Source: Anaerolineae bacterium
GTDB taxonomy: Bacteria; Chloroflexota; Anaerolineae; Promineifilales; Promineifilaceae
Direction: 5' to 3'
DNA: 64,000 bases
NCBI GenBank assembly: GCA_045105475.1
Contig: JBGCDP010000222.1
Coordinates: 4,471-68,470, forward strand
Positions 20,591-51,971 of this stretch are shown piece by piece; the stretch's first letter is position 1; each line of letters opens with the position of its first letter. The notes below the pieces were generated by a model, which made no database searches, was not told where the DNA came from, and worked only from the letters and a program-made list of their open reading frames with translations. The position numbers were made by a program, and so were the translations under genes.

Positions 20591-22639
20591 CTACCTAACA
20601 ACCAGCGGCAGATAAATAAGTACAGAACTCGATTCTGCCGTACCCGACGGAGTCAGCGTTGCAGATGGGATGGGGGTCGTAGTGCTCGTTGAAGCAGGGG
20701 GTGGAAGTGTGGGGGCATCGGGAGTTGCCGTCTGGGTTCCAGTTACGATCGGGGTCGCTGTAAGTGTGCCTGTGGCGGTTGAAGTTACAGTCGGCACAGA
20801 AGTCGCAGTCCCGGTCGGTATCGAAGTTTCTGTAGCGGCCGGTGTTGCAGTGGCACTGGCTATTGGGGTTGCTGTCTCAGTTGACACAACCGGGGTAGCT
20901 GTGGCGGCAGCTTGATTAATCACAATCTCGATGTCGGCCGTGTCTAGCAGCCCTGATGCGCCAAAAATCGACCACGTCACGGTTCTGGGCGGCGCAGGGT
21001 CAGCCGAGGTGCTGGTTTGGAATGAGATCGTTTTGATCACGGCCGCATAATCGGCCGTTACATTTGAGCCGCTTAAAGTTAAAGTCCCGCTAGGCGCATC
21101 AAAGTTACTACTAATCGTTCCGGTAACGGCCGCATTTAAGCTATCGAACCCTTGATCATAGTTGGCCGAAATCTGCACAGTCACAGTTAATATTTCTTCG
21201 CTGCCAACCAGAGTAACTTGTTCATTTGTGAGGGTATCGGTTACGCCAATCGAATACGCAGTGGTTGTCATCGGCTCTCGATTCAGAATACGCATAAATG
21301 CATCCTTATCGTTGCTGTTGACACCATCCATACTTGTATCAATTTGTTCAATCCCTTCCCATACAACAACAGGAATAGTCCCATCAATTGCTGAGACATA
21401 GGGCCATTCTTGTGCTCCGGCTTTAGATTGATTGACAACGAACTCTTCCGATAAAGCCGTCCCTGTCTGGTCAAGCTGAACGGCCAAAATAGCCGCACTC
21501 CCTGACCCGGCCGGGCCCTCTTCTCCACCAAATGATTCCCAAGTGACAACAAATGAGCCGTCTTTAAGGCCGACAACATCTGGCCTATGTTGAAATCCAC
21601 TTAGCTGAACTTTATTGACAATAAATTCATCGATTAGAGGCTCTCCTAGCTGATTTAATAGTCGGCCAGCGATATCGCTTGAACTCGTTTGATAAACAAC
21701 CACGCTATTACCGCTTAAGAATGGCGCAATTTGAGCGCTTTCTTGATTAGGCACGGGTGATGCACTCACTTGCTTATTCGGGCCAACTTTGGCTCCACTC
21801 GCATCAAACAGTTGAGCAAAAACATGTGTGTCACCCGAATTGTTCCGGCCGGGCCAGCTAATGATGCTGCCACCGTTTCGGAGTGGTGCCACGTTGGGTT
21901 TGATAACAAACGTTACAGAGACTTCATTTGAACTCATGATGCTTGTAACAGGAGTTAAGGTGCTGTCATATAACCGACTGCCTACTTCATAATGTCCAAA
22001 CTCAACCGATTGGCGATAAGTAAGCATAAAGTTGCCATTGGTTAGCTCAACCATTTCAGGCTCATTTGTACCCACAGTATCTGTAAGAATGGTTTGAGCT
22101 GGCCCTGTGGCTACTCCGGAGCTATTAAACTTCCTAGCTGCAATTTGCTTGTCTCTAAACCACACCGCATAAAAGCCACCGTCGCTAGTCGGTGTCAGAG
22201 CTACGTCATTCGCATGCCCGATCGAATCGTAGTCGTATAGCTGAATATCACTTGTGATTGTGGTGCCGTCAGCATTATAAATTTTACCAAACAGGTCCCT
22301 TTCATCAGCCGGGACACTGCTGGGGAAAGCTTCTATTTCAATATCCCATCCAAGAAGGAGAGTTCCATTTGCAAGCCCAGCGACACGCACATCCTCCTGC
22401 TTCATTTCGTCATTTAATCCGGCCGGATAGACCGATTCATCAGCCGCACTGCTTTCACTAATCGGCCCTAGTGTAGAAAGCTCCACATTGGTGAAAAATA
22501 TAATCTGGTTAGTTGCTGCCGTCGGTCGAAATTGAAGAACAATCGATAAAAACAGAATCGTGCTCAGCAAAAAAGAAATGGCTAATTTTCGGCCGCGGCC
22601 GTTTAGAAAAAACAAAGGTTTCACAGTTTTATTACTCAT
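20591..22639 (-). CDS. Large secreted repeat protein (beta-propeller-like hhhhW repeats, adhesin-type Ig-like module, PT/TA linker, C-terminal IYLPLVVR)
   Basis: There is a signal anchor. Repeats end in ..FVVTWES, ..VVVWEG and ..FYAVWFRD. A module reading SGTLTLSGSNVTADYAAVIKTISF is present. The protein ends ..SSSVLIYLPLVVR. Confidence 0.6.
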   Translation of the reverse strand: MSNKTVKPLFFLNGRGRKLAISFLLSTILFLSIVLQFRPTAATNQIIFFTNVELSTLGPISESSAADESVYPAGLNDEMKQEDVRVAGLANGTLLLGWDIEIEAFPSSVPADERDLFGKIYNADGTTITSDIQLYDYDSIGHANDVALTPTSDGGFYAVWFRDKQIAARKFNSSGVATGPAQTILTDTVGTNEPEMVELTNGNFMLTYRQSVEFGHYEVGSRLYDSTLTPVTSIMSSNEVSVTFVIKPNVAPLRNGGSIISWPGRNNSGDTHVFAQLFDASGAKVGPNKQVSASPVPNQESAQIAPFLSGNSVVVYQTSSSDIAGRLLNQLGEPLIDEFIVNKVQLSGFQHRPDVVGLKDGSFVVTWESFGGEEGPAGSGSAAILAVQLDQTGTALSEEFVVNQSKAGAQEWPYVSAIDGTIPVVVWEGIEQIDTSMDGVNSNDKDAFMRILNREPMTTTAYSIGVTDTLTNEQVTLVGSEEILTVTVQISANYDQGFDSLNAAVTGTISSNFDAPSGTLTLSGSNVTADYAAVIKTISFQTSTSADPAPPRTVTWSIFGASGLLDTADIEIVINQAAATATPVVSTETATPIASATATPAATETSIPTGTATSVPTVTSTATGTLTATPIVTGTQTATPDAPTLPPPASTSTTTPIPSATLTPSGTAESSSVLIYLPLVVR

Positions 22640-25274: not shown

Positions 25275-25630
25275 AGCGAAGTTAGTTAGGCAATCTATAC
25301 ATTGTCACAAACAAGCTAAGGGGAGTTTGCTCTGTTTGCAGATAGAGTCTGCCAAATATAGATTTTCCTTTTATGTAATCAAGTAAATCTCCTACAGTCA
25401 TCATCCTTATAAAGAAATCATCCATTCATCCTTACGGAAAAGTTGACACTCATAAGTTATTAATATAGTGGCTACCACTTGGCCCAATCACTTTTAAAAA
25501 CCTAGATTTCTCCTCATTATTCAATAGGTTAAAAGATAATGAGACTACTCTTCTAACAAAAAAGGGAGCTGTTGAATCATTACGATTTCTAAAGAATGCG
25601 CTTCGCTTGCTAAAGCTTTCTGTTACCATA

Positions 25631-26620
25631 ATGGTTATGTCACGGATGAAACGTAACGAGCTCGATCATTTAACGGAGCGGGAATTAGAAGAGGCGCTAT
25701 ACCGCAAACGATATATCGAGCGGAGAAATCGCCTAACCCGACTAAAAGATGAAGGTCGGGTTGTAGAATCACCGATTATTCAAACTAGGAATCCATCAAA
25801 CGCATCACCTTCATTTGCCTCGCCAGAAGCTTCTGCTGAACAAACACGGTGGGCTGAAACAGTAACAGGCAAACCGGCACAAAAAGGCGGCCGTTTGGGA
25901 GGCTTATTTAATCGATCGCTTCTACTAGTCGAAGTTGCGGCCGCTGTTGGGTTTATTTGGATTGTCTTTTCACTTGTGGGATCACTCCGCCAATTAAACA
26001 GTGATATAGCTGACGTCCAGCAGGCTGCTATTGCTGGCGTGCCCAGTATACCAACACCAACCCTTCCACCGGTTATCGATTTAGTTTTACTGCCTACAGG
26101 ACATCAACCACCAATCGAAGGTCAGCCGATTGTTCACGAAGAAGCAGGCGGCATCCCCGACCATCTACTACCACTAGTCGATGCCTACGTCCCTCCAGTC
26201 GCACCCACACCAGCTCCGGAGCAGCCACGTCAAATCGCTATTTCAAAGATTGGTGTCAACGCTCCTATCTTTCAAGGCCACGAAGAAGAGCAGTTGAAGA
26301 AAGGGGTTGGGCACAGCATTGGTACAGCCCTTGTTGGCACCCCTGGCAACATGGTTCTATCAGCCCATAATGACATTTATGGTGAGATATTCAGAAACTT
26401 AGATCAGCTTGAAAGCGGAGACGAGGTTATTGTCTCATCGGGGCGCGAAAGCTACACTTATATCATTAATAATATTCAGGTGGTTGAACCTACAGCTGTT
26501 GAAGTAATGGCTCCCACAGATCATGCCAGCCTAACTTTAATCTCTTGCTATCCGTATTTGATAGACAACAAGCGTATAATTGTAAAGGCTGATTTAAAAG
26601 AAACTTTAAATAACGGGTAA
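25631..26620 (+). CDS. Sortase (class E-like) with N-terminal membrane anchor
   Basis: Catalytic His is in LSAHND, catalytic Cys in TLISCYP, and Arg in RIIVKA. Candidate starts are 25607 (TTG), 25631, 25637 and 25646. Confidence 0.85.
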   Translation: MVMSRMKRNELDHLTERELEEALYRKRYIERRNRLTRLKDEGRVVESPIIQTRNPSNASPSFASPEASAEQTRWAETVTGKPAQKGGRLGGLFNRSLLLVEVAAAVGFIWIVFSLVGSLRQLNSDIADVQQAAIAGVPSIPTPTLPPVIDLVLLPTGHQPPIEGQPIVHEEAGGIPDHLLPLVDAYVPPVAPTPAPEQPRQIAISKIGVNAPIFQGHEEEQLKKGVGHSIGTALVGTPGNMVLSAHNDIYGEIFRNLDQLESGDEVIVSSGRESYTYIINNIQVVEPTAVEVMAPTDHASLTLISCYPYLIDNKRIIVKADLKETLNNG

Positions 26621-26622
26621 CT

Positions 26623-26883
26623 ATGACAAAACGATCTCAAGATACAAAAAGAATTAGAGAAGAAATGCGCAAAAAGCGTTTTCGGCCAGACAAAACGGCC
26701 GGAGCCGGGCCTTCAGCCGGCCGTCGTCGCCGCCGAGGACGCATCCGAAATGTATCAATTGAAGAATTACGGGAAGAATACAGCTATGTCTTAAAGGATT
26801 TAAGACGAATCTTTATCTTGGCGGCCGCAATGTTTGTCTTGCTTATTGCGGCTAACATTGTCTACCCACTTTTAGCTGGTTAG
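26623..26883 (+). CDS. Hypothetical Arg-rich tail-anchored small protein
   Basis: It starts 2 nt after the sortase stop. It has an RRRRRGR run and a C-terminal TM segment (IFILAAAMFVLLIAANIVYPLL). Confidence 0.45.
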   Translation: MTKRSQDTKRIREEMRKKRFRPDKTAGAGPSAGRRRRRGRIRNVSIEELREEYSYVLKDLRRIFILAAAMFVLLIAANIVYPLLAG

Positions 26884-35226: not shown

Positions 35227-35351
35227 CAAACGTTCAGCACGCCACGCTCTCAATCAGGTATTTTCTGAAACTGGCATAGTTTGGCACAAAAAAATATCGA
35301 TTTGGCATAGGATTCTGACTTAAGATCGGTTTATGTTCGAGTCGGCCGTCA

Positions 35352-35702
35352 ATGGTTTTTAAAATCATCGGCCGACCCGATATGAAAAACAACCACCTTA
35401 TGGAGAATCCCTTTATGGAATTTACCCTGATCGATTTTTTAGTTGGCTTTTTACTCATGAACGCAATGCCACATTGGATATTTGGGATTACTAAAACCCG
35501 GATGCTCAGTGCCTTTGGGTTCAGCCATCAAGCCAACATCGCTTATTCGTTTTTAAATATCGCCATCGCTCTCTCGCTGCTTCAGTTTCAATATGGCCTA
35601 ACACAGTTACTTAATAATGGTGTTGTTATTGGCGCTCTGGCGATGCTTGTTATTTATTATCTGACTGGGAAATTTTTCCTCACTTTGTTTGAAGAAAAAT
35701 AA
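35352..35702 (+). CDS. Hypothetical small membrane protein
   Basis: Three hydrophobic segments. The start is uncertain; ATGs lie at 35382, 35400 and 35415, and the last has GGAGA upstream. Confidence 0.4.
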   Translation: MVFKIIGRPDMKNNHLMENPFMEFTLIDFLVGFLLMNAMPHWIFGITKTRMLSAFGFSHQANIAYSFLNIAIALSLLQFQYGLTQLLNNGVVIGALAMLVIYYLTGKFFLTLFEEK

Positions 35703-35735
35703 AATTGAATAGTCTGCATTTAAGGAGAAAATCTA

Positions 35736-36125
35736 ATGTTATTACCTCATCACATGTTACGGCCGTTGTTTCGCATCGATGGGATTGTCACCACCCTAGC
35801 AGGCCTTTTGATGGTCACGATTCCGGGCATGCTCATTAGCATGCTTCAGCTCGGCTCAATTTCACCCCTTTGGACACGCATTATTGGCGTGGTTTGGCTA
35901 TTGTTCGGTTTATGGCTATTGACCTTATGGAATGCAGACTACACCAAAGGTGGGGCACTGTTTGCGATGATTGTTCTAGAGCTAAACGGACTGCTCTTGG
36001 TTGTGGCCGCAATTTTTGGCGGCTTTGGCTTGGGCGCAATGGGTTGGATTACGATGATCGGCACTGCGGTGTTTATCTATTTTGTCGCATCGCAGTGGTG
36101 GTTCTATCGGCCGGAATTGGCTTGA
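35736..36125 (+). CDS. Hypothetical 4-TM membrane protein
   Basis: AAGGAGA lies upstream of the ATG. There are four hydrophobic helices. Confidence 0.5.
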   Translation: MLLPHHMLRPLFRIDGIVTTLAGLLMVTIPGMLISMLQLGSISPLWTRIIGVVWLLFGLWLLTLWNADYTKGGALFAMIVLELNGLLLVVAAIFGGFGLGAMGWITMIGTAVFIYFVASQWWFYRPELA

Positions 36126-36163
36126 ATCTAAAATAAGTCTAATCAATAGTCTCAAGTAAAAAT

Positions 36164-36202
36164 AAAAAAGGCCGATGATTTTAAAATCATCGGCCTTTTT
36201 TT
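36164..36202. terminator. Bidirectional rho-independent terminator
   Basis: The sequence is AAAAAA-ggccgatgatttt/aaaatcatcggcc-TTTTTTT. It lies between the membrane-protein gene and the convergent tRNA. Confidence 0.75.
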
Positions 36203-36207
36203 GTCTG

Positions 36208-36288
36208 TACCGGAGGTGGGACTCGAACCCACACACCAAGGGTATGCGATTTTGAATCGCACGCGTCTGCCAATTCCGCCACTCCGGC
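36208..36288 (-). tRNA. tRNA-Leu (anticodon CAA), class II with long variable arm
   Basis: I folded it by hand. The acceptor is GCCGGAG/CTCCGGT, the anticodon stem is tgcga/tcgca with loop TTCAAAA, the T-arm is gtggg-TTCGAGT-cccac, and the variable arm is 12 nt. CCA is not encoded. Confidence 0.85.
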
Positions 36289-36378
36289 ATACAGTCTGCA
36301 CGAACGAAAGAAGATTATATTCAAGAACGAAAAAAAGCAAAAGAAAAATTCACAATTGATTACACTCTTAAAATATAT

Positions 36379-36774
36379 CTACGTATTTAGAATGCTATTA
36401 ATCACACGAGACGTCCGTCGGATCTCATGCATAACCAGCCCAATCTTTGCATTTTTATCTACGATAGCTGCGATTGCCGCATTCTCATTAACCGGAACTA
36501 CAATTAAAGCTCCATAATCCCCTTCAATTAAGAGTCGGTTCAAATTACCTTGTGACATTTGCATCAGCGTCTTTTCACCTAATCCGGTCAACGCGGCCGT
36601 CATCGCAGCAATCTGCGGACTATTCGCTTTCTGTCCTGTTAAATCTTCTGGCGTATGTGCTGCCACAACAAATCCATCAATACTCACAACAACCGTATCT
36701 TGAATACTGTCCATGCGATTGGTTAGATTTTGTAATTCCTGCTCTAGTTTTTCACTGCGGTATAGATTAGACAT
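36379..36774 (-). CDS. Roadblock/LC7 (MglB-like) domain protein
   Basis: The pattern VVVSIDGFVVAA...LLIEGDYGALIVVPV is typical of Roadblock/LC7. Confidence 0.75.
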   Translation of the reverse strand: MSNLYRSEKLEQELQNLTNRMDSIQDTVVVSIDGFVVAAHTPEDLTGQKANSPQIAAMTAALTGLGEKTLMQMSQGNLNRLLIEGDYGALIVVPVNENAAIAAIVDKNAKIGLVMHEIRRTSRVINSILNT

Positions 36775-37041
36775 TTTCCCGAAGTTAAACGATTCCTACG
36801 ATTTTAGTACTACAGAAATCGCCCTACAGAGTCATTTTATTTGACTCAAGATTATTCAATTTATGTTTGCGACAAAGGGGTGGGCATGAATCATCTTTTT
36901 GTACGACTACCATTATCTCAATTCTAGTTTTCTACAATCGAAAATTTACCCGTAAGAAAATATTATAGGCTCTTTTTAACTGTTGCCAATGGTATCTAAG
37001 AACGATTCCATTGAAATGCAGTTTTCGTATCTTTTATTAAT

Positions 37042-37076
37042 AAAAAAGCCCGGCCGATTAAAAACCAGCCAGGCTT
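37042..37076 (-). terminator. Probable terminator of the pdh operon
   Basis: On the minus strand an imperfect stem (gcctggc...gccgggc, one G-U pair) is followed by TTTTTT. It lies 29 nt after the E2 stop. Confidence 0.45.
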
Positions 37077-37104
37077 GATAAACCTATCTAAAAACAAAAA
37101 CGAT

Positions 37105-40878: not shown

Positions 40879-42705
40879 ATGGCAATTTTAGGCAACTGGA
40901 AAACTATAATCTATATCGCAATATGCTTGATTTTGTTTGTTGTACAGGCCGGGTTGTCTACATCAGTTGCCAATAGCCAGACAATCAATTTCCTAACCCC
41001 ACTTCCAGATACCTATTCGGTAACACAATCACAGCAAGACCCTTTTGTAATCCAACACCGATTTGTGACCTTTAGCTCTGCTGAGTTTGCAACAAGGTCC
41101 TACTCTAATAGTAGAAATGTCTCTCTAACTCTTTTTGGTAAACAACAAATTGAAATTGAAATGATCCAAATTGATCATTCAAACAATGGTGGACAATCTT
41201 TCGTCGGAAATATTGTAGGCCACCCGCTCAGCGAAGCGGTTTTCACTTGGCGAGACGACATTGCGGCGGGCACAATTAATTTGGGAGATTCTATCTATCG
41301 CCTACGACATTTGAAAGATGGGGTTCATATTTTCGAACAACTTCCAGCCCAATATCTTCCCTCAGGCGAGCCGCTCATTCCTACAGGCTTGGAGCTTGAA
41401 TCACATTCGGAACATTCAACCGAAATTGAAATTGACGATGCATCTCAAACAAACAGTACGACCATGATTGATGTGCTCGTCCTTTATACCCAGTCTTCGG
41501 AACAGGCAATGGGCGGTGAGATTGGAACGCAAAACACAATTGATCTCGCACTCACTGAATCTAATTTGGGGCTTCAAAATAGCGGGGTCAATGTTAGGTT
41601 TAACATCGTCCACAGCCAAAAAGTTGATTTTGACGAAACAAAGGAAGACTTCTCATCTATGTTAGATGAGCTAACCAGCACAAATGATGGCACCCTAGAT
41701 GAAGCCCATGCAATGCGAGACCAATATGGGGCCGATGTTGTTACTATGATCGTCAACCGCAGGCTGCTATGCGGCAAAACCTATCAAAATGATGGTGGCA
41801 ATCCGAACTTTGATAAGTTTGCTTTTAGCATTTTGCATCACTCGTGTGTAACTGGCTATTACAGCTTTGCTCATGAGATCGGTCACAACATGGGCAGCCA
41901 ACATAATCGCTCTAACTCAAGCCAAGCAGGAGCCTTCAACTATAGTTACGGCTATCAAGATCCGGGAAATCGCTTCCGGACGATCATGGCTTACAACTGT
42001 CGCACAACCTGTCTACGTATCAACCATTGGTCTAATCCCAATGTTTTCTATGAAAATCTGGGGCCAACGGGCCATGCGGCTCACAGTGCAATTGGAGCAG
42101 ACAATCATCTCAGCCTGTCTCAAATGGCCCCCAGCATGGCGGCATTTAGAGATAGGGTTTTAGACGCCAATCAGGTAGTAGAGATCAATTTTCAACTCGA
42201 GGGTACAGCACCAGAACAAGATATTCTTATTGACAATGGGGAGCCTTTACAAGTTTATGAAGGGCACCTTGTGTATGGGTGGAATGCCGATTATTCAATA
42301 TCAGTACCCAACCAAAACCTTAATAAGTCTAATTCTACTTTTGTTCACGCCATTGCAGAAGAAGGAGAAAAAGCGATCTGGGAGATGCTTGTACCAAACG
42401 GCCGATATCAAGTCCGATTGATTTCAGGCGACCCAAAGTCAGTCACTCAGCCATCTAGTATGGTCATAGAAAATGAAATTGTTCAAAAAAAGCCTGGCTC
42501 TGAACAATCTGATCTATTTGAAGCTGATTTAGCAATAGAAGTTTCAGATGGATATCTGTCTATTTCCGGCCCCACCCATGAAACAATCCTCAATTTAGTA
42601 GAAATTACCCCTCTCTTTGTTGACAATCAAAACATCACCCCTGAAGAGCCTAATCCATCACCCATAGGGCCATATGCGATCTTCATCCCCGTCGTCGTAA
42701 GGTAA
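40879..42705 (+). CDS. Secreted metzincin zinc metalloprotease (reprolysin/M12B-like) with C-terminal beta-sandwich domain and terminal IFIPVVVR
   Basis: A signal peptide is present. The zinc site is HEIGHNMGSQH and the Met-turn is TIMAY. AGGAG lies 7 nt before the ATG at 40879. The protein ends ..PIGPYAIFIPVVVR. Confidence 0.75.
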   Translation: MAILGNWKTIIYIAICLILFVVQAGLSTSVANSQTINFLTPLPDTYSVTQSQQDPFVIQHRFVTFSSAEFATRSYSNSRNVSLTLFGKQQIEIEMIQIDHSNNGGQSFVGNIVGHPLSEAVFTWRDDIAAGTINLGDSIYRLRHLKDGVHIFEQLPAQYLPSGEPLIPTGLELESHSEHSTEIEIDDASQTNSTTMIDVLVLYTQSSEQAMGGEIGTQNTIDLALTESNLGLQNSGVNVRFNIVHSQKVDFDETKEDFSSMLDELTSTNDGTLDEAHAMRDQYGADVVTMIVNRRLLCGKTYQNDGGNPNFDKFAFSILHHSCVTGYYSFAHEIGHNMGSQHNRSNSSQAGAFNYSYGYQDPGNRFRTIMAYNCRTTCLRINHWSNPNVFYENLGPTGHAAHSAIGADNHLSLSQMAPSMAAFRDRVLDANQVVEINFQLEGTAPEQDILIDNGEPLQVYEGHLVYGWNADYSISVPNQNLNKSNSTFVHAIAEEGEKAIWEMLVPNGRYQVRLISGDPKSVTQPSSMVIENEIVQKKPGSEQSDLFEADLAIEVSDGYLSISGPTHETILNLVEITPLFVDNQNITPEEPNPSPIGPYAIFIPVVVR

Positions 42706-43101: not shown

Positions 43102-46100
43102 ATGAGTAGAAAAATGTGGAAAAGAAATCGAAGATCAATGCTTATCTTCGGTGTATTGCTGACAATGCTAGTTGCAGCAACAGCACAAGCAGACCCTGAG
43201 CCTGGAGTCCCACAGCCTGAAGGACCTACAGCCGAAAAGCTAGAAACCTCAGTCCAATTAGATTTCAGCCCGCGTTTAGCAACAAATAAAGTCGACCCTT
43301 CTTTAATTAGAGCAGATGGGAGACAAGTTGTTATTGTCCGTCTTAGCCAAGATTCGGCCGGCCAAACGGTTGGATCGAACAATGGTGGCAAAAGCTCGGC
43401 AGTACGTGCTGACCAAGTAATGGCGTCTGACTCAGCGGCCCAAGATTCTGTAGCAGCAGCAAATGCTCAACAGTCATCGGTCATGCAAAGCATTTTAGCC
43501 GTAGATCCGAATGCACGTATTATCGCTCGTACACAAATTGTTTTAAATGCGATTTTTGTTGAACTTGATGCAGCTGCTATTCCAGAATTAGCATCATCGG
43601 CCGATATTATTTCAATCAACCAAGTTAAAAATTATTCTCTTGATCTATCTGAAACTGTTCCATACATCGGCGGAACAGCAGTTCAAAACATGGGATATGA
43701 CGGCAGTGGCATCCGTGTTGCTGTCCTTGATAGTGGCGTTGACTATACACATGCTAACCTCGGGGGTGGAGGAACCCTAGCTGATTATGAAGCGGCTTGG
43801 GGAACAACTTTCTCAGACCCTGCAAACACCACTCGCGATGGTTTATTCCCAACTACGAAAGTTGTTGAAGGATTTGACTTTGTTGGTGAAGATTGGCCAA
43901 ATAGCCCAGAAGCATTTGACGATGACCCGATCGATTTCGAAGGTCATGGAACACACGTTGCAGACATCATTGCAGGCGCCAATGGTGTTGCACCCGGTGC
44001 AGACATCGTAGCGGTCAAAGTATGTTCGGCCGTTAGTTCATCATGCTCTGGTCTTGCCTTGATTCTAGGGATGGAATATGCCGTTTCTCAAGGCGTTGAT
44101 ATCATCAACATGTCATTGGGATCAGACTACGGTAGCCCATTTGATGATGACCTGACAGCCGCTGTCGAAGCTGCTTCAGACTTAGGTGTCCTTACCGTTT
44201 CATCAGCTGGTAATGGCGGAAACAACCAATACAAAGTTGGAACCCCATCAACCGCTCCAAGTGCGCTATCTGTAGCACAAACCGCTGTCCCCTCAGCCGG
44301 TCTAGACTTCATGCAAATCGACGGTGGCAACAGCTATCCAGCGATCTTCCAAAACTGGTCAGTTCCATTGTCTGTTGCAATTACCGGCCCTGCCCAGTAC
44401 GGTGACTTAGATGGGACGAACCTAAATGGTTGTGCCGCCTTCTCAGGCGACCTCACAGGTCTCGTTGTCTTAGTAGACCGCGGCGCATGTTCTTTCAGTG
44501 TCAAAATTTCAAATGTCGCAGCAGCTAACGGCTCTGTAGGAATTATCGGCCTTGTTGCCCCTGGTGAAGCATTCACCGGTGGATTTGGTGGCGGCACACC
44601 AGATATTCCAGGCTTTATGGTAGACCAAGCGGCCGCGAATGATTTCAAAGCTGCTTTCGCAGCAGGTGGAACGGTTACGTTTGACCCAGCGAACGCGCTA
44701 TCTTTGGCCGGAACGATGACAAGCTCATCATCACGCGGACCTTCTAATGATACCAACCAGATCAAACCTGAAATCGGTGCACCTGGTGCTTCAATTTCGG
44801 CCGAAGCTGGAACTGGAACTGGCGAAACACCATTCGGTGGTACCTCTGGTGCTTCACCTATGGTTGCCGGTGCAGCAGCACTTTTGATGGACGCTTACGA
44901 CATCAACAGCAACAGCTGGATTCGCCCAGACCAAATCAAAGCGATGTTGATGAACAATGGTGAAACCGAAATCTACACCACATCACCAGCCATTAGCACA
45001 CAGCTTGCGCCAATCACCCGCATCGGTGGTGGTGAAGTTCGTGTTGATCGTGCTTTAGCCTCAAACATTGTGGCTTACTCAGATGCCTTCGATGGCTCTG
45101 GCGCATTGTCATTCGGACAAGTTGATGTCAACAAGAAACGGGTTTATACCCAACGCTTCATCATCGACAATCTTTCTGCTCAAAAGCGTAAGATTGCATT
45201 GAGTGCCGTGTTCCGTGACGCAGCAAAAGAAGCTAGCGGTGCGGTCACCATTAAAATGCCAAACCAAGTTACGGTCCCAGGATATCAGGCTCGCATCGTA
45301 ACCGTACGCATTACGGTTGATCCAGAATTATTACCAGATTGGACGATGGGCATCGGAGCACAAGGCTCAGGTGCAGCAACGCTCGACATCAATGAGTTTG
45401 ATGGTTACATCATGATGGATGACACCAAAACCAGCGATGATGATGCGGACCAAGCGCATATGGCTTGGCACATCTTGCCGCGTAAATCAGGTAATACAAA
45501 AGCGACGAAGACCAACATGGAAACAAAAGAAGATTTCTTCGGTTTCCCAGCGGCAACGACACCAGTTAAGAATCGTGGCAAAAGTGAAACAGATGCGCGC
45601 GTATTCACCTATCTAGCAGGTAGCCCAGATTTACCACCAACCGTCATGGGTACACAGTCTCCAATTGCAGACATCAAGCATGCTGGTTACCGTGCCTTCC
45701 TCGATGATGGCAGTAGCTGTGATGCAGGTTGGGGTATGGAATTCTTAGCCGCAGGCTGGGAACGTCAGACCCACGAGTGGCCAGACTACTATCAATTTGT
45801 CCTAGACGTTGATAATAATGGTGCATTTGATCATGTTGTTTATCACTACGACCTCTTCAACTTCACCGGTACGCTTGACGGCCGCAACTTGACCTATGTC
45901 GATACACTTGACGAGGCAACCGGCTCAGCCATTAACACGACCGCCTTCTTCTTTACCGATAGCCCAACTAACTTCAACAACTACATCATGACGATTTGTG
46001 GTGAGCAGTTAGGCTTCGCTGATACATCGGCCGCAGGCGCTCCAATGCCAGCAGTTGTTACCGGCGTTGATGGCTACTACACAGGCGCAGTTACCGATGT

Positions 46101-46332
46101 CTTGGGCGGCTTGGTTGTATCACCGTTTGGTAATCGTTATGACGCACGCTTCGTGGCTGATGACGGCTCAATCTCTCGTGATGCAACAATCGCAGGCGAT
46201 TCAACGGCTCAACTCACCGTGTTCGACTTTGGTGCAGGCTCACCGGGGAATGACACAGGTGTGATCTTGGTTTATCACAATGGTGCTCTTGAAGGGCGCG
46301 AGAATGATGTGATCACGATCTGGAGTCGATAG
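43102..46332 (+). CDS. Secreted subtilisin-family (S8) serine protease with PA-domain insert and large C-terminal extension
   Basis: Catalytic triad motifs VAVLDSGVD, HGTHVADIIAG and GTSGASPMVAGAAALL. The PA-like insert reads VVLVDRGACSF. AAGGAG lies upstream. Confidence 0.9.
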   Translation: MSRKMWKRNRRSMLIFGVLLTMLVAATAQADPEPGVPQPEGPTAEKLETSVQLDFSPRLATNKVDPSLIRADGRQVVIVRLSQDSAGQTVGSNNGGKSSAVRADQVMASDSAAQDSVAAANAQQSSVMQSILAVDPNARIIARTQIVLNAIFVELDAAAIPELASSADIISINQVKNYSLDLSETVPYIGGTAVQNMGYDGSGIRVAVLDSGVDYTHANLGGGGTLADYEAAWGTTFSDPANTTRDGLFPTTKVVEGFDFVGEDWPNSPEAFDDDPIDFEGHGTHVADIIAGANGVAPGADIVAVKVCSAVSSSCSGLALILGMEYAVSQGVDIINMSLGSDYGSPFDDDLTAAVEAASDLGVLTVSSAGNGGNNQYKVGTPSTAPSALSVAQTAVPSAGLDFMQIDGGNSYPAIFQNWSVPLSVAITGPAQYGDLDGTNLNGCAAFSGDLTGLVVLVDRGACSFSVKISNVAAANGSVGIIGLVAPGEAFTGGFGGGTPDIPGFMVDQAAANDFKAAFAAGGTVTFDPANALSLAGTMTSSSSRGPSNDTNQIKPEIGAPGASISAEAGTGTGETPFGGTSGASPMVAGAAALLMDAYDINSNSWIRPDQIKAMLMNNGETEIYTTSPAISTQLAPITRIGGGEVRVDRALASNIVAYSDAFDGSGALSFGQVDVNKKRVYTQRFIIDNLSAQKRKIALSAVFRDAAKEASGAVTIKMPNQVTVPGYQARIVTVRITVDPELLPDWTMGIGAQGSGAATLDINEFDGYIMMDDTKTSDDDADQAHMAWHILPRKSGNTKATKTNMETKEDFFGFPAATTPVKNRGKSETDARVFTYLAGSPDLPPTVMGTQSPIADIKHAGYRAFLDDGSSCDAGWGMEFLAAGWERQTHEWPDYYQFVLDVDNNGAFDHVVYHYDLFNFTGTLDGRNLTYVDTLDEATGSAINTTAFFFTDSPTNFNNYIMTICGEQLGFADTSAAGAPMPAVVTGVDGYYTGAVTDVLGGLVVSPFGNRYDARFVADDGSISRDATIAGDSTAQLTVFDFGAGSPGNDTGVILVYHNGALEGRENDVITIWSR

Positions 46333-49985: not shown

Positions 49986-50414
49986 GGTATCTCCTTTCCG
50001 CTTGACCCATCAAAGATGATTGGTGATATACGGATAAATAATTTCAACAAACTTCTGCTTTTAATTTTAAATTTTATAGTTTCGCTGGTCCCATTACTTT
50101 GTGTATAAGGGAGCAGAGTCACGGTAGTACTGATTAGCAGTATACAGATATGTCAGGGGTCATGGTGCTCTGAGGGGAGTAGGCATATGGTATAGGGGTC
50201 CTAGTTGGTCTAATAATAGCCATATTGTCCTATATGATTTGGCATAAAACCGGCCGGAAATAAGCAAAGTTGTCAGATTTCTTCGGTAAAAGAGAAGGGA
50301 GTGGTGCTAAGCCATATGCCAAAGTCGGCCGCATTTTTGTTTGTTCATCACAAAAACATAGGTAAACTCACAACTGGTGTACACCAATTAAAAATCTATG
50401 CGAGGGTATCTCAA

Positions 50415-51971
50415 ATGGCAAAAAGACGTAAAGGTGGCGGCCGCGCTGCAAGACACGCACTCCGCTCTGCTGACAATAAAGACAAAAAGTCACCCGTTCA
50501 ACCGGGGTTAACTGGTGGGCAATACAAACCGCTAAAAGATGAAGACGTTGTTCGTATTCACGAAGCCGCTCTCGAAATTCTTGAAACGGTTGGCATGGGA
50601 ACCCCCATCCCTTTAATAGTAGAGCTGGCTGAAGCGCGTGGTGCCACCATGAATGACAAAGGCCGTTTGTGCTTTCCCAAAAAGCTCATGAATGAACTAA
50701 TCGATGGGGCCGCAAAATCGATTACGCTTTACGGTCGGGACCCGAAATTTGATCTTGATGTGTCAAAAGAGCGGGTCCACTTTGGGACCGGCGGAGCCGC
50801 GATTTCTGTACTCGATTTTGAATCAGGTGCTTATCGTAATTCAAACTTGGCCGACATTTATGACTTTGCCCGGCTCACCGACCAGCTAGACAACGTCCAT
50901 TGGTTCACTCGTTCGGTCATCGCGACTGAGCTGCAAGATCCGTATGAACTTGACATCAATACCGCCTATGCACTCATCGCAGGCACTAAGAAGCATATCG
51001 GTACGGCGATTACTATCCCTGAAAATGTGAAGCCGATCACCGAAATGTTTGACATTGTGGCAGGCGGACCCGGTGAGTTTGCCAAACAGCCGTTCTGTAA
51101 ACTGCATACGAGCCCGATTGTGCCTCCGTTGCGCTACGGCGTTGACGCCCAAGAAACAATAGTCGAAGCGATGAAATATGGCTGGCCAATCAATGCGATC
51201 ACGGCCGGGCAGTCAGGAGCGACTTCTCCAGCCACCTTAGCTGGAACCCTCGTCCAAACCCATGCGGAAACGCTGGCAGCGATGGCGTTTGTCAATCTTA
51301 TCGAGCCAGGCTACCCATTTATCTTTAGCAATTGGCCGTTTGTGGCTGACCTACGCACTGGGTCAATGACGGGTGGAAGTGCTGAAGGTGGGCTGCTCAG
51401 CGCGGCCGCTGCGCAGCTAGCCAACTATATCGACATGCCCAGCGGCGTGGCAGGTGGTATGCCAGACTCAAAAACGTTTGACGGTCAAGCTGGGTACGAG
51501 CGGGCTTTGCCCCATGTGATGATTGGTCTAGCCGGGGCCAATTTGGTCTATGAATCGGCCGGAATGCTGGCCGCGCTCCTCAGCTGTTCATACGAGGCGT
51601 TTGTCATCGACAACGAGATCATCGCTTCGGTCATGCGAGCGGTGCGAGGAATCGAAGTAACAGACGAGACGATGGGGGTTGATGTAATTGCGCGAACGGT
51701 GGCAGGAGCAGGCCATTATTTGGGAGCGGAACAGACAATCTCAGTGATGGAAACGGAGTACCTTTACCCAGAGTTGGGAGATCGTACATCACCATCACAG
51801 TGGGAAGAGTATGGCTCTATTGATATTTGGACCCGTGCCCGAGCCAAAGTGAAGCAGATGATGCAACAATACCCTGAGTACATAACGCCTGAGCAGGACG
51901 CTGAAATTCGGGCAAAGTTTGAATTAAAGCTGAGCCCTGAGGATGTGTCATCCAAGTCCAGCCGTTGGTAG
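50415..51971 (+). CDS. MttB-superfamily (non-pyrrolysine) methyltransferase, quaternary-amine type
   Basis: The N-terminus is basic (RRKGGGRAARHA) and continues YKPLKDEDVVRIHEAALEILETVGM. The body is MttB-like and has no in-frame TAG. GAGGG lies upstream of the ATG at 50415. Confidence 0.8.
   Translation: MAKRRKGGGRAARHALRSADNKDKKSPVQPGLTGGQYKPLKDEDVVRIHEAALEILETVGMGTPIPLIVELAEARGATMNDKGRLCFPKKLMNELIDGAAKSITLYGRDPKFDLDVSKERVHFGTGGAAISVLDFESGAYRNSNLADIYDFARLTDQLDNVHWFTRSVIATELQDPYELDINTAYALIAGTKKHIGTAITIPENVKPITEMFDIVAGGPGEFAKQPFCKLHTSPIVPPLRYGVDAQETIVEAMKYGWPINAITAGQSGATSPATLAGTLVQTHAETLAAMAFVNLIEPGYPFIFSNWPFVADLRTGSMTGGSAEGGLLSAAAAQLANYIDMPSGVAGGMPDSKTFDGQAGYERALPHVMIGLAGANLVYESAGMLAALLSCSYEAFVIDNEIIASVMRAVRGIEVTDETMGVDVIARTVAGAGHYLGAEQTISVMETEYLYPELGDRTSPSQWEEYGSIDIWTRARAKVKQMMQQYPEYITPEQDAEIRAKFELKLSPEDVSSKSSRW

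Follow-up and report, generated by a model that had tools for sequence, protein, structure and literature searches.

Two exported proteins encoded in the 64-kb stretch of Anaerolineae DNA analysed here (contig JBGCDP010000222.1; referred to below as the window) end in an ultrashort hydrophobic tail which, judged by its sequence, is a member of the YLP-box, a putative sorting motif that has already been catalogued. The proteins are encoded by the open reading frames (ORFs) at 20591..22639 on the minus strand (protein 1) and 40873/40879..42705 on the plus strand (protein 2), the latter carrying a divergent form of the tail. The motif lies at the very end of the chain, occurs on a wide range of exported proteins and gives way, in homologues, to known anchoring and secretion modules. 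We favour, with modest confidence, the explanation that it is a sorting or retention tag which keeps its cargo on the cell surface and which, after export, is recognised by a trans-acting factor of the envelope whose gene lies elsewhere.

The shared C-terminal motif and its catalogued models

The tail of protein 1, V-L-I-Y-L-P-L-V-V-R (20594..20623, minus strand), runs directly into the stop codon at 20591-20593, the C-terminus reading ...AESSSVLIYLPLVVR followed by TAG and immediately afterwards by TGA as a second stop. In protein 2 the tail is A-I-F-I-P-V-V-V-R (42676..42702, plus strand), with Ile instead of the usual Leu before Pro, and the C-terminus ...SPIGPYAIFIPVVVR is followed by TAA (42703-42705). 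An earlier reading of this DNA, made without database searches (the sequence-only reading), had placed both tails correctly, with a stop codon right after the terminal Arg in each. Among all window ORFs of at least 60 amino acids (aa), the ending P-phi-phi-x-[RK] is limited to proteins 1 and 2, and the degenerate DNA pattern [YF]-phi-P-phi-V-V-R-stop gave two matches in the window versus 0.00 expected from 100 dinucleotide-preserving shuffles. The codons of the two tails differ (ctt att tat ctg ccg ctg gtt gtt agg in protein 1; gcg atc ttc atc ccc gtc gtc gta agg in protein 2), which places the similarity at the level of the protein rather than of a DNA repeat; a DNA-level repeat or terminator as the source of the shared ending was ruled out on the same ground. 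Coincidence or artefact (through a DNA repeat, an overlap of a terminator with the stop codon, or misplaced ORF ends) is therefore a negligible explanation of the ending, given the shuffle expectation, the differing codons, the immediate stops (two consecutive ones in protein 1) and the retention of the tail in orthologues of 44-66% identity and in dozens of unrelated families.

The consensus of the YLP-box is [polar or basic]-[I/V]-[F/Y]-L-P-[L/V/I/M]-[V/I/T]-x-[R/K]-COOH. Position by position it was drawn up from 31 tails that had not been chosen by any DNA pattern, numbered from Pro (position 0, which was set by the selection rule) with negative numbers upstream. Position -3 is I, V or L in 27/31 tails, position -2 is F or Y in 27/31 and position -1 is L in 28/31; downstream, an aliphatic residue, M or F stands at +1 in all 31, V, I or T at +2 in 28/31 and R or K at +4 in 29/31, with +3 being variable. 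Pro is followed by four residues in 22 of the 31 tails (range 3-6). In 57 further tails, selected by the search pattern described below, the residue just upstream of the seven-residue apolar core is R, K, Q or N 36 times. In 339,000 residues of Chloroflexota ORFs the core motif was internal once versus terminal 60 times, 57 of the 60 terminal occurrences having been picked by that pattern; the lone internal occurrence lies at position 28 of the ORF of locus L119 (PIYLPVVLKDYSG...).

Five homologues (P0011, P0013, P0017, P0018 and P0275) have a YLP-like box followed by 6-15 extra hydrophilic residues (e.g., VYLPLVEITNKSK and YIYLPILYRPEAVVPPYTCPAP), and on these sequences the motif may not depend strictly on a free chain end. 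Three homologues of protein 2 (P0016, P0028 and P0091) carry a different, very short hydrophobic tail whose last residue is acidic (...AMPWLMLLLGD, ...LYLPWLMLLE and ...SIVPILSLLLD). None of the three matched an NCBIfam model, and they may represent another ultrashort C-terminal tag of another lineage.

The sequence-only reading had stated that the ending matches no named C-terminal sorting domain, which proved incorrect, as NCBIfam release 20.0 contains two curated models that match such tails, NF053834.1 ('ultrashort_CTERM'), with 10 positions and a cutoff of 10 bits, and NF050076.1 ('sort_motif_YLP'), with 11 positions and a cutoff of 15 bits; each bears the title 'YLP-box putative sorting motif-containing protein'. 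The discovery of the motif is therefore not new. Tail 1 scored above the cutoff of 10 on NF053834.1 (12.7 bits as a 25-aa fragment, 11.9 bits as a 40-aa fragment) and slightly below the cutoff of 15 on NF050076.1 (14.9 and 14.1 bits, respectively), and among 35 collected tails the two models matched 11 and 16. Tail 2, queried as fragments of 24, 25 and 40 aa, matched neither model at E up to 10; the membership of protein 2 follows from its orthologues, which end in IYLPIVVR, IFMPLVVR and VLLPLVVR, together with the identical layout of the tail. When full-length proteins 1 and 2 were compared with NCBIfam the YLP models were not reported even at E up to 1, and they surface only with short C-terminal fragments as the query. 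Because full-length scans miss the tag and F-I-P variants escape the models, annotation is likely to undercount it. Pfam has no counterpart of these models, and our literature search found no paper describing the YLP-box motif. What is added here is that the tag occurs on both Sec and twin-arginine translocation (Tat) cargo, that it needs no linker, that it is predicted to be disordered, that known anchors replace it, and that its genes show no neighbourhood link to a sortase.

Exported cargo and lineage of the tagged proteins

Protein 1 (20591..22639, minus strand) is an exported protein of 682 aa in which, as judged from the sequence, a putative N-terminal repeat domain is followed by a putative Ig/cadherin-like region, a Thr/Ala/Pro linker and the tail. 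From its sequence the repeat domain looks propeller-like, and the full-length protein gave no match in Pfam, NCBIfam or a sequence search of the PDB. Its putative N-terminal export signal (MSNKTVKPLFFLNGRGRKLAISFLLSTILFLSIVLQFRPTAA; 22514..22639, minus strand) consists of a basic region and a 17-residue hydrophobic core, and in both proteins a basic N-terminal region followed by a hydrophobic stretch resembles a signal peptide by a hydropathy heuristic. The linker, rich in Thr, Ala, Pro and Ser, measures 98 aa (residues 575-672; 20624..20917, minus strand; T31, A18, P14, S12), in agreement with the roughly 100 aa given by the sequence-only reading. That reading had also counted the linker as part of the shared signal, a view that we do not uphold: although the tail is retained in each of the three close orthologues of protein 1 (KDIYLPLVIR, TTFIFLPLVVR and STIYLPFVIR), only one has the linker, which P0242 and P0244 lack, and in many cargo proteins the tail stands directly behind a folded domain, often FN3 among the M12 homologues. 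The linker is thus optional and lies outside the motif.

Protein 2 (40879..42705, plus strand) is a 608-aa exported, reprolysin-like M12 metallopeptidase (Pfam Reprolysin_5/3/4, E 3e-13). The two cargo proteins are unrelated, as the sequence-only reading had stated. In protein 2 a putative signal peptide is followed by an N-terminal beta domain, the catalytic domain (~41461-42141), a C-terminal beta-sandwich (~42178-42615) and a disordered end that bears the tail. Its AlphaFold2 model is confident overall (mean predicted local distance difference test score, pLDDT, 82; predicted template modelling score, pTM, 0.82), and the last 27 residues (582-608) have a pLDDT of 35-43 and no secondary structure, so the model predicts that the tag is a free linear motif outside any fold. 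A YLP-type tail ends 24 of the best 120 metallopeptidase homologues of protein 2, behind domains that differ from one homologue to the next (YTIYLPIVVR, TIFMPLVVR, TVLLPLVVR, AVFLPVVSR, LIFLPIVVK and RLYLPLIRR; also IHLPIVVR).

Distant homologues of the N-terminal repeat domain of protein 1, from other phyla, end in other modules, namely RTX repeats of the type I secretion system (T1SS), an SLH domain, a Por_Secre_tail of the type IX secretion system (T9SS), a dockerin or a PEP-CTERM-like helix. One YLP-type tail comes immediately after a region that matches the choice-of-anchor Q domain below threshold (14.6 bits, cutoff 25; E 0.028). The window also encodes an exported S8 subtilase with a PA domain (43102-46332, plus strand), which lacks a YLP tail and ends in ...VITIWSR, whereas its homologues in loci L026, L057, L112 and L116 do have one; the tag has accordingly been gained and lost inside one family.

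The sequence-only reading had proposed a scan of related genomes, and such a scan found the motif to be widespread and not confined to the two proteins. Our reference-genome search used one codon-restricted DNA variant of the motif, [I/V/M]-F-L-P-phi-V-V-[R/S]-stop, against species-representative genomes, and the counts that follow refer to the first 120 loci listed. Of these, 63 carry Chloroflexota labels. In Chloroflexota 55/65 matches listed lie at the true stop of an ORF that is at least 100 aa long, against 2/57 in other genomes, which gives at least 57 tail genes (55 labelled Chloroflexota and 2 others). Within Anaerolineae the matches listed include Anaerolineales, Caldilineales, Ardenticatenales and Promineifilaceae, and within Chloroflexia they include Roseiflexus, Oscillochloris, Viridilinea and Chloroflexaceae; with this one motif variant, Dehalococcoidia had no match among those listed and Ktedonobacteria a single chance match. 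In viral contigs, a separate set, the same pattern gave five matches, all at the ends of short ORFs (8-89 codons from the preceding stop), which is consistent with chance. Besides the tails selected by the pattern, three more were present in 448 kb of Chloroflexota loci and none in 401 kb of other loci. The density of the tag is approximately 1 gene per 100-150 kb of YLP-positive sequence, and the 64-kb window has 2. The sequence data support a tag that is confined to one bacterial lineage, the Chloroflexota (Anaerolineae and Chloroflexia).

The two tail genes with other labels (L037, in a Cellvibrionaceae bin, and L063, in a Roseobacter bin) lie on contigs of metagenome bins, and neither contig has similarity to the window. 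A further long ORF with a YLP tail (P0124) is on a contig binned to Proteobacteria. The Cellvibrionaceae-labelled bin has a second match (L010), at the end of a 59-aa ORF only, and a sortase 76% identical to the one encoded in the window is also labelled Cellvibrionaceae. We suspect that the Proteobacteria-labelled contigs with YLP tails are mis-binned Chloroflexota.

Most full-length cargo proteins begin with an N-terminal hydrophobic, signal-like segment, and 52 cargo proteins gave matches to 100 Pfam families. The commonest were SdrD_B, DUF11, CarboxypepD_reg, Big_9, cadherin-like, fn3, Chlam_PMP, PPC, PD40, SpaA, Peptidase_S8, Peptidase_C25 and DUF1501, a range which by domain content is the usual repertoire of anchored surface proteins and exoenzymes. 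Two DUF1501 proteins (L009 and L018, from Ardenticatenaceae and Ardenticatenia bins) have a clear twin-arginine signal (TRRQFLVG..., TRRQFLVGCSAA...), so the tag is found on both Sec and Tat substrates and is not bound to one export route. The 'LVGC' in this signal could alternatively be a lipobox.

The window sortase and the neighbourhood of the tail genes

The window contains a gene for a membrane-bound sortase (25607-26620, plus strand; PF04203, E 4.5e-31; TIGR01076, 86 bits vs a cutoff of 39), which lies 3 kb from the gene for protein 1. The sortase falls below the class C, D, E and F cutoffs and is therefore unclassified. Its family is conserved over the full length at 47% identity or more in Anaerolineae, and its named members come from Ardenticatenaceae, Anaerolineales, Promineifilaceae and Sulfomarinibacteraceae. 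According to a 2006 paper (PMC1586193), a single sortase-like protein is present in Chloroflexus. Directly after the window sortase there is a small ORF of 86 aa (26623-26883, plus strand) with a basic N-terminus and a C-terminal transmembrane segment; its 'EELREEY' helix resembles the 'EELEQxLYRKKR' motif at the N-terminus of the sortase. In at least 38 of 80 related loci, tblastn placed this ORF immediately behind the sortase gene, and the two therefore form a conserved gene pair.

The YLP-box could be a minimal, non-canonical sortase signal that is read by this conserved membrane-bound sortase of the lineage, an explanation that we consider quite unlikely. The L-P would be recognised, the chain would be cut after the beta-branched residue at +2 (LP-x-V/I/T corresponding to LPXT-G) and the cargo would be transferred to peptidoglycan, with ...SSSVLIYLPLVVR as a candidate substrate peptide. 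In its favour, L-P is invariant, the +2 residue is V, I or T in 28/31 tails (Val is isosteric with the Thr of LPXTG), and short peptides without a transmembrane segment are cleaved by sortases in vitro. The proximity of an unclassified sortase to protein 1 and the strong full-length conservation of its family in Anaerolineae also fit. Heuristic scans by simple regular expressions and hydropathy rules picked up no canonical substrate of LPXTG, transmembrane helix and basic tail in the window, nor did they in the tail loci of Chloroflexota, and the 694 kb around sortase genes, screened for a C-terminal helix plus basic tail only, likewise held none.

Against such a role, the Thr-Gly, the transmembrane helix and the basic cluster after the motif are all absent from the tails, and the neighbourhood evidence on the sortase as an adjacent partner of tail genes is negative in both directions. 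A tblastn search with the window sortase found no sortase gene in the 120 pattern-match loci, the 57 tail genes included, and 80 metagenome sortase loci (2,077 ORFs, 694 kb) contained no YLP tail versus approximately 5 expected from the non-seed density of ~0.7 per 100 kb. Moreover, the named close homologues of the sortase come from Anaerolineae, whereas the tails occur in Chloroflexia too.

Two other features of the window touch neither the tails nor the sortase. There is a borderline Rfam match to PYLIS_3, the pyrrolysine insertion element of mttB (51459-51558, plus strand; 38.3 bits vs a gathering score of 38), inside a 556-aa ORF (50301-51971). A single tRNA-Leu (CAA) lies at 36207-36288 on the minus strand, in a region of ~1.9 kb (35227-37104) without any ORF that reaches 150 aa.

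Reading of the tag and comparison with known sorting systems

Filamentous Chloroflexota (Anaerolineae and Chloroflexia) place the YLP-box on proteins exported by either Sec or Tat. Under the explanation that we favour, the cargo would first pass the cytoplasmic membrane, after which the disordered tail would serve as a peptide ligand for a trans-acting envelope factor whose gene is not adjacent to those of its substrates. Recognition would depend on the invariant L-P core, the aromatic residue at -2 and the basic residue at a near-fixed distance from the end. In this way adhesins and exoenzymes would be held at the cell surface rather than lost by diffusion, and a short C-terminal cleavage, or a covalent attachment of the cargo, may accompany retention. 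The sequence-only reading had called the ending a sorting, anchoring or processing signal on the strength of the two proteins; the tail does behave like a sorting or anchoring tag, in being terminal, lineage-restricted, present on unrelated exported proteins and swapped with anchors. Its sorting role is putative, and no enzyme or receptor was found that would act on it.

Several points weigh against a dedicated factor that directs localisation through the tag. The seven-residue hydrophobic core is too short to retain a precursor in the membrane, and to our knowledge every characterised C-terminal sorting system depends on such retention. The neighbourhood searches found no candidate reader or enzyme: no neighbour family recurs at the 57 tail genes, where all-against-all clustering of the ORFs in the 8-kb loci recovered cargo paralogues only, and nothing relevant was present among the neighbours in two further 20-kb tail contexts. 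A strict need for a free carboxylate is doubtful, since some homologues extend 6-15 residues past the box. Furthermore, the absence of the tag from Dehalococcoidia and Ktedonobacteria is no more than suggestive, because it derives from the first 120 loci for a single codon-restricted variant.

The tail might alternatively act as a passive, non-covalent interfacial anchor without any enzyme, in the outer leaflet or in a hydrophobic sheath or S-layer, its seven apolar residues, Pro kink and basic or polar flanks dipping into the layer. The seven-residue apolar core, the R or K near the end of 29/31 tails and the R, K, Q or N before the core in 36/57 are what such an anchor would look like, no conserved partner gene was found nearby, and structure prediction leaves the tail exposed and disordered. 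A generic hydrophobic anchor, however, needs neither an invariant Pro, a near-invariant Leu and an aromatic residue at -2 nor a fixed spacing from the end, and this sequence specificity resembles that of motifs recognised by proteins. The membrane affinity of seven residues would also be weak for cargo of 500-2,500 aa. We regard a passive anchor as unlikely, if worth keeping in mind.

In other bacteria, tail-specific proteases with PDZ domains recognise apolar C-termini, and the YLP-box might likewise mark its cargo for processing or turnover, whether as a C-terminal degron or protection tag for an extracytoplasmic protease or as an export-competence signal. Some of the cargo proteins are peptidases (M12, S8 and C25), in which C-terminal pro-segments are common. 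The cargo is nevertheless mostly non-enzymatic and adhesin-like, the last residue is Arg or Lys rather than apolar, homologues swap the tail with anchoring and secretion modules, not with pro-domains, and Sec and Tat substrates alike bear it, all of which makes a turnover signal very improbable.

That the YLP-box is read by machinery without precedent for a signal of this shortness, being either the conserved, unclassified Chloroflexota sortase working on a tag devoid of a transmembrane segment or an unrecognised envelope enzyme or receptor, is a tentative suggestion which we think more doubtful than not. If true, it would amount to a new mode of protein attachment to the envelope of single-membrane, filamentous Chloroflexota, and two substrates and one candidate enzyme would lie on one contig, in the window. 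Sediments, hot springs and wastewater sludge all harbour abundant Chloroflexota, a group whose cell envelope is poorly understood; as the tag is found on adhesins, proteases and other exoenzymes, it would offer a direct handle on the retention of surface proteins.

Of the known systems, the two NCBIfam YLP models describe the same motif, aligned to ...IYLPLVVR at the chain end. The sortase signals of the LPXTG type are similarly C-terminal tags with an L-P core on exported surface proteins, and their cargo resembles that of the YLP-box (SdrD_B, SpaA, cadherin-like and Big domains, and subtilases). Unlike LPXTG and its relatives (LAXTG, NPQTN and LPNTA), the window tails read L-P-L-V-V and I-P-V-V-V, so that Thr-Gly is absent and L-P alone is shared, and the YLP-box has no transmembrane helix or basic cluster, there being 3-6 residues and a single R or K after Pro. 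The observation in the sequence-only reading that there is no LPXTG or LAXTG motif, and that the stretch is too short for a helix plus basic tail, is confirmed by these lengths. In proteins 1 and 2 there was also no Pfam or NCBIfam match to the folded T9SS C-terminal domain of ~80 aa or to RTX repeats with a C-terminal T1SS signal.

Very short signals at the chain end are known from other settings, since in the eukaryotic CAAX box and in the C-terminal Lys of Braun lipoprotein (Lpp) four residues or fewer, set at a constant distance from the terminus, suffice for enzymatic processing or wall attachment. The YLP-box differs from the CAAX box in having no Cys and from Lpp in ending mostly in Arg, which cannot be cross-linked as the Lys is; the organisms and the compartment also differ. 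The NCBIfam models for PEP-CTERM, GlyGly-CTERM, MYXO-CTERM and PGF-CTERM did not match proteins 1 and 2, either at full length or as C-terminal fragments. These tripartite domains span ~25-35 residues, with a membrane-spanning helix and an Arg/Lys cluster, whereas seven apolar residues and a single basic one make up the YLP-box. Like PEP-CTERM/exosortase, GlyGly-CTERM/rhombosortase, PGF-CTERM/archaeosortase and MYXO-CTERM/myxosortase, however, the YLP-box is a lineage-specific tag carried by many unrelated exported proteins, and like these tags it is swapped among homologues in the manner known as 'choice of anchor'.

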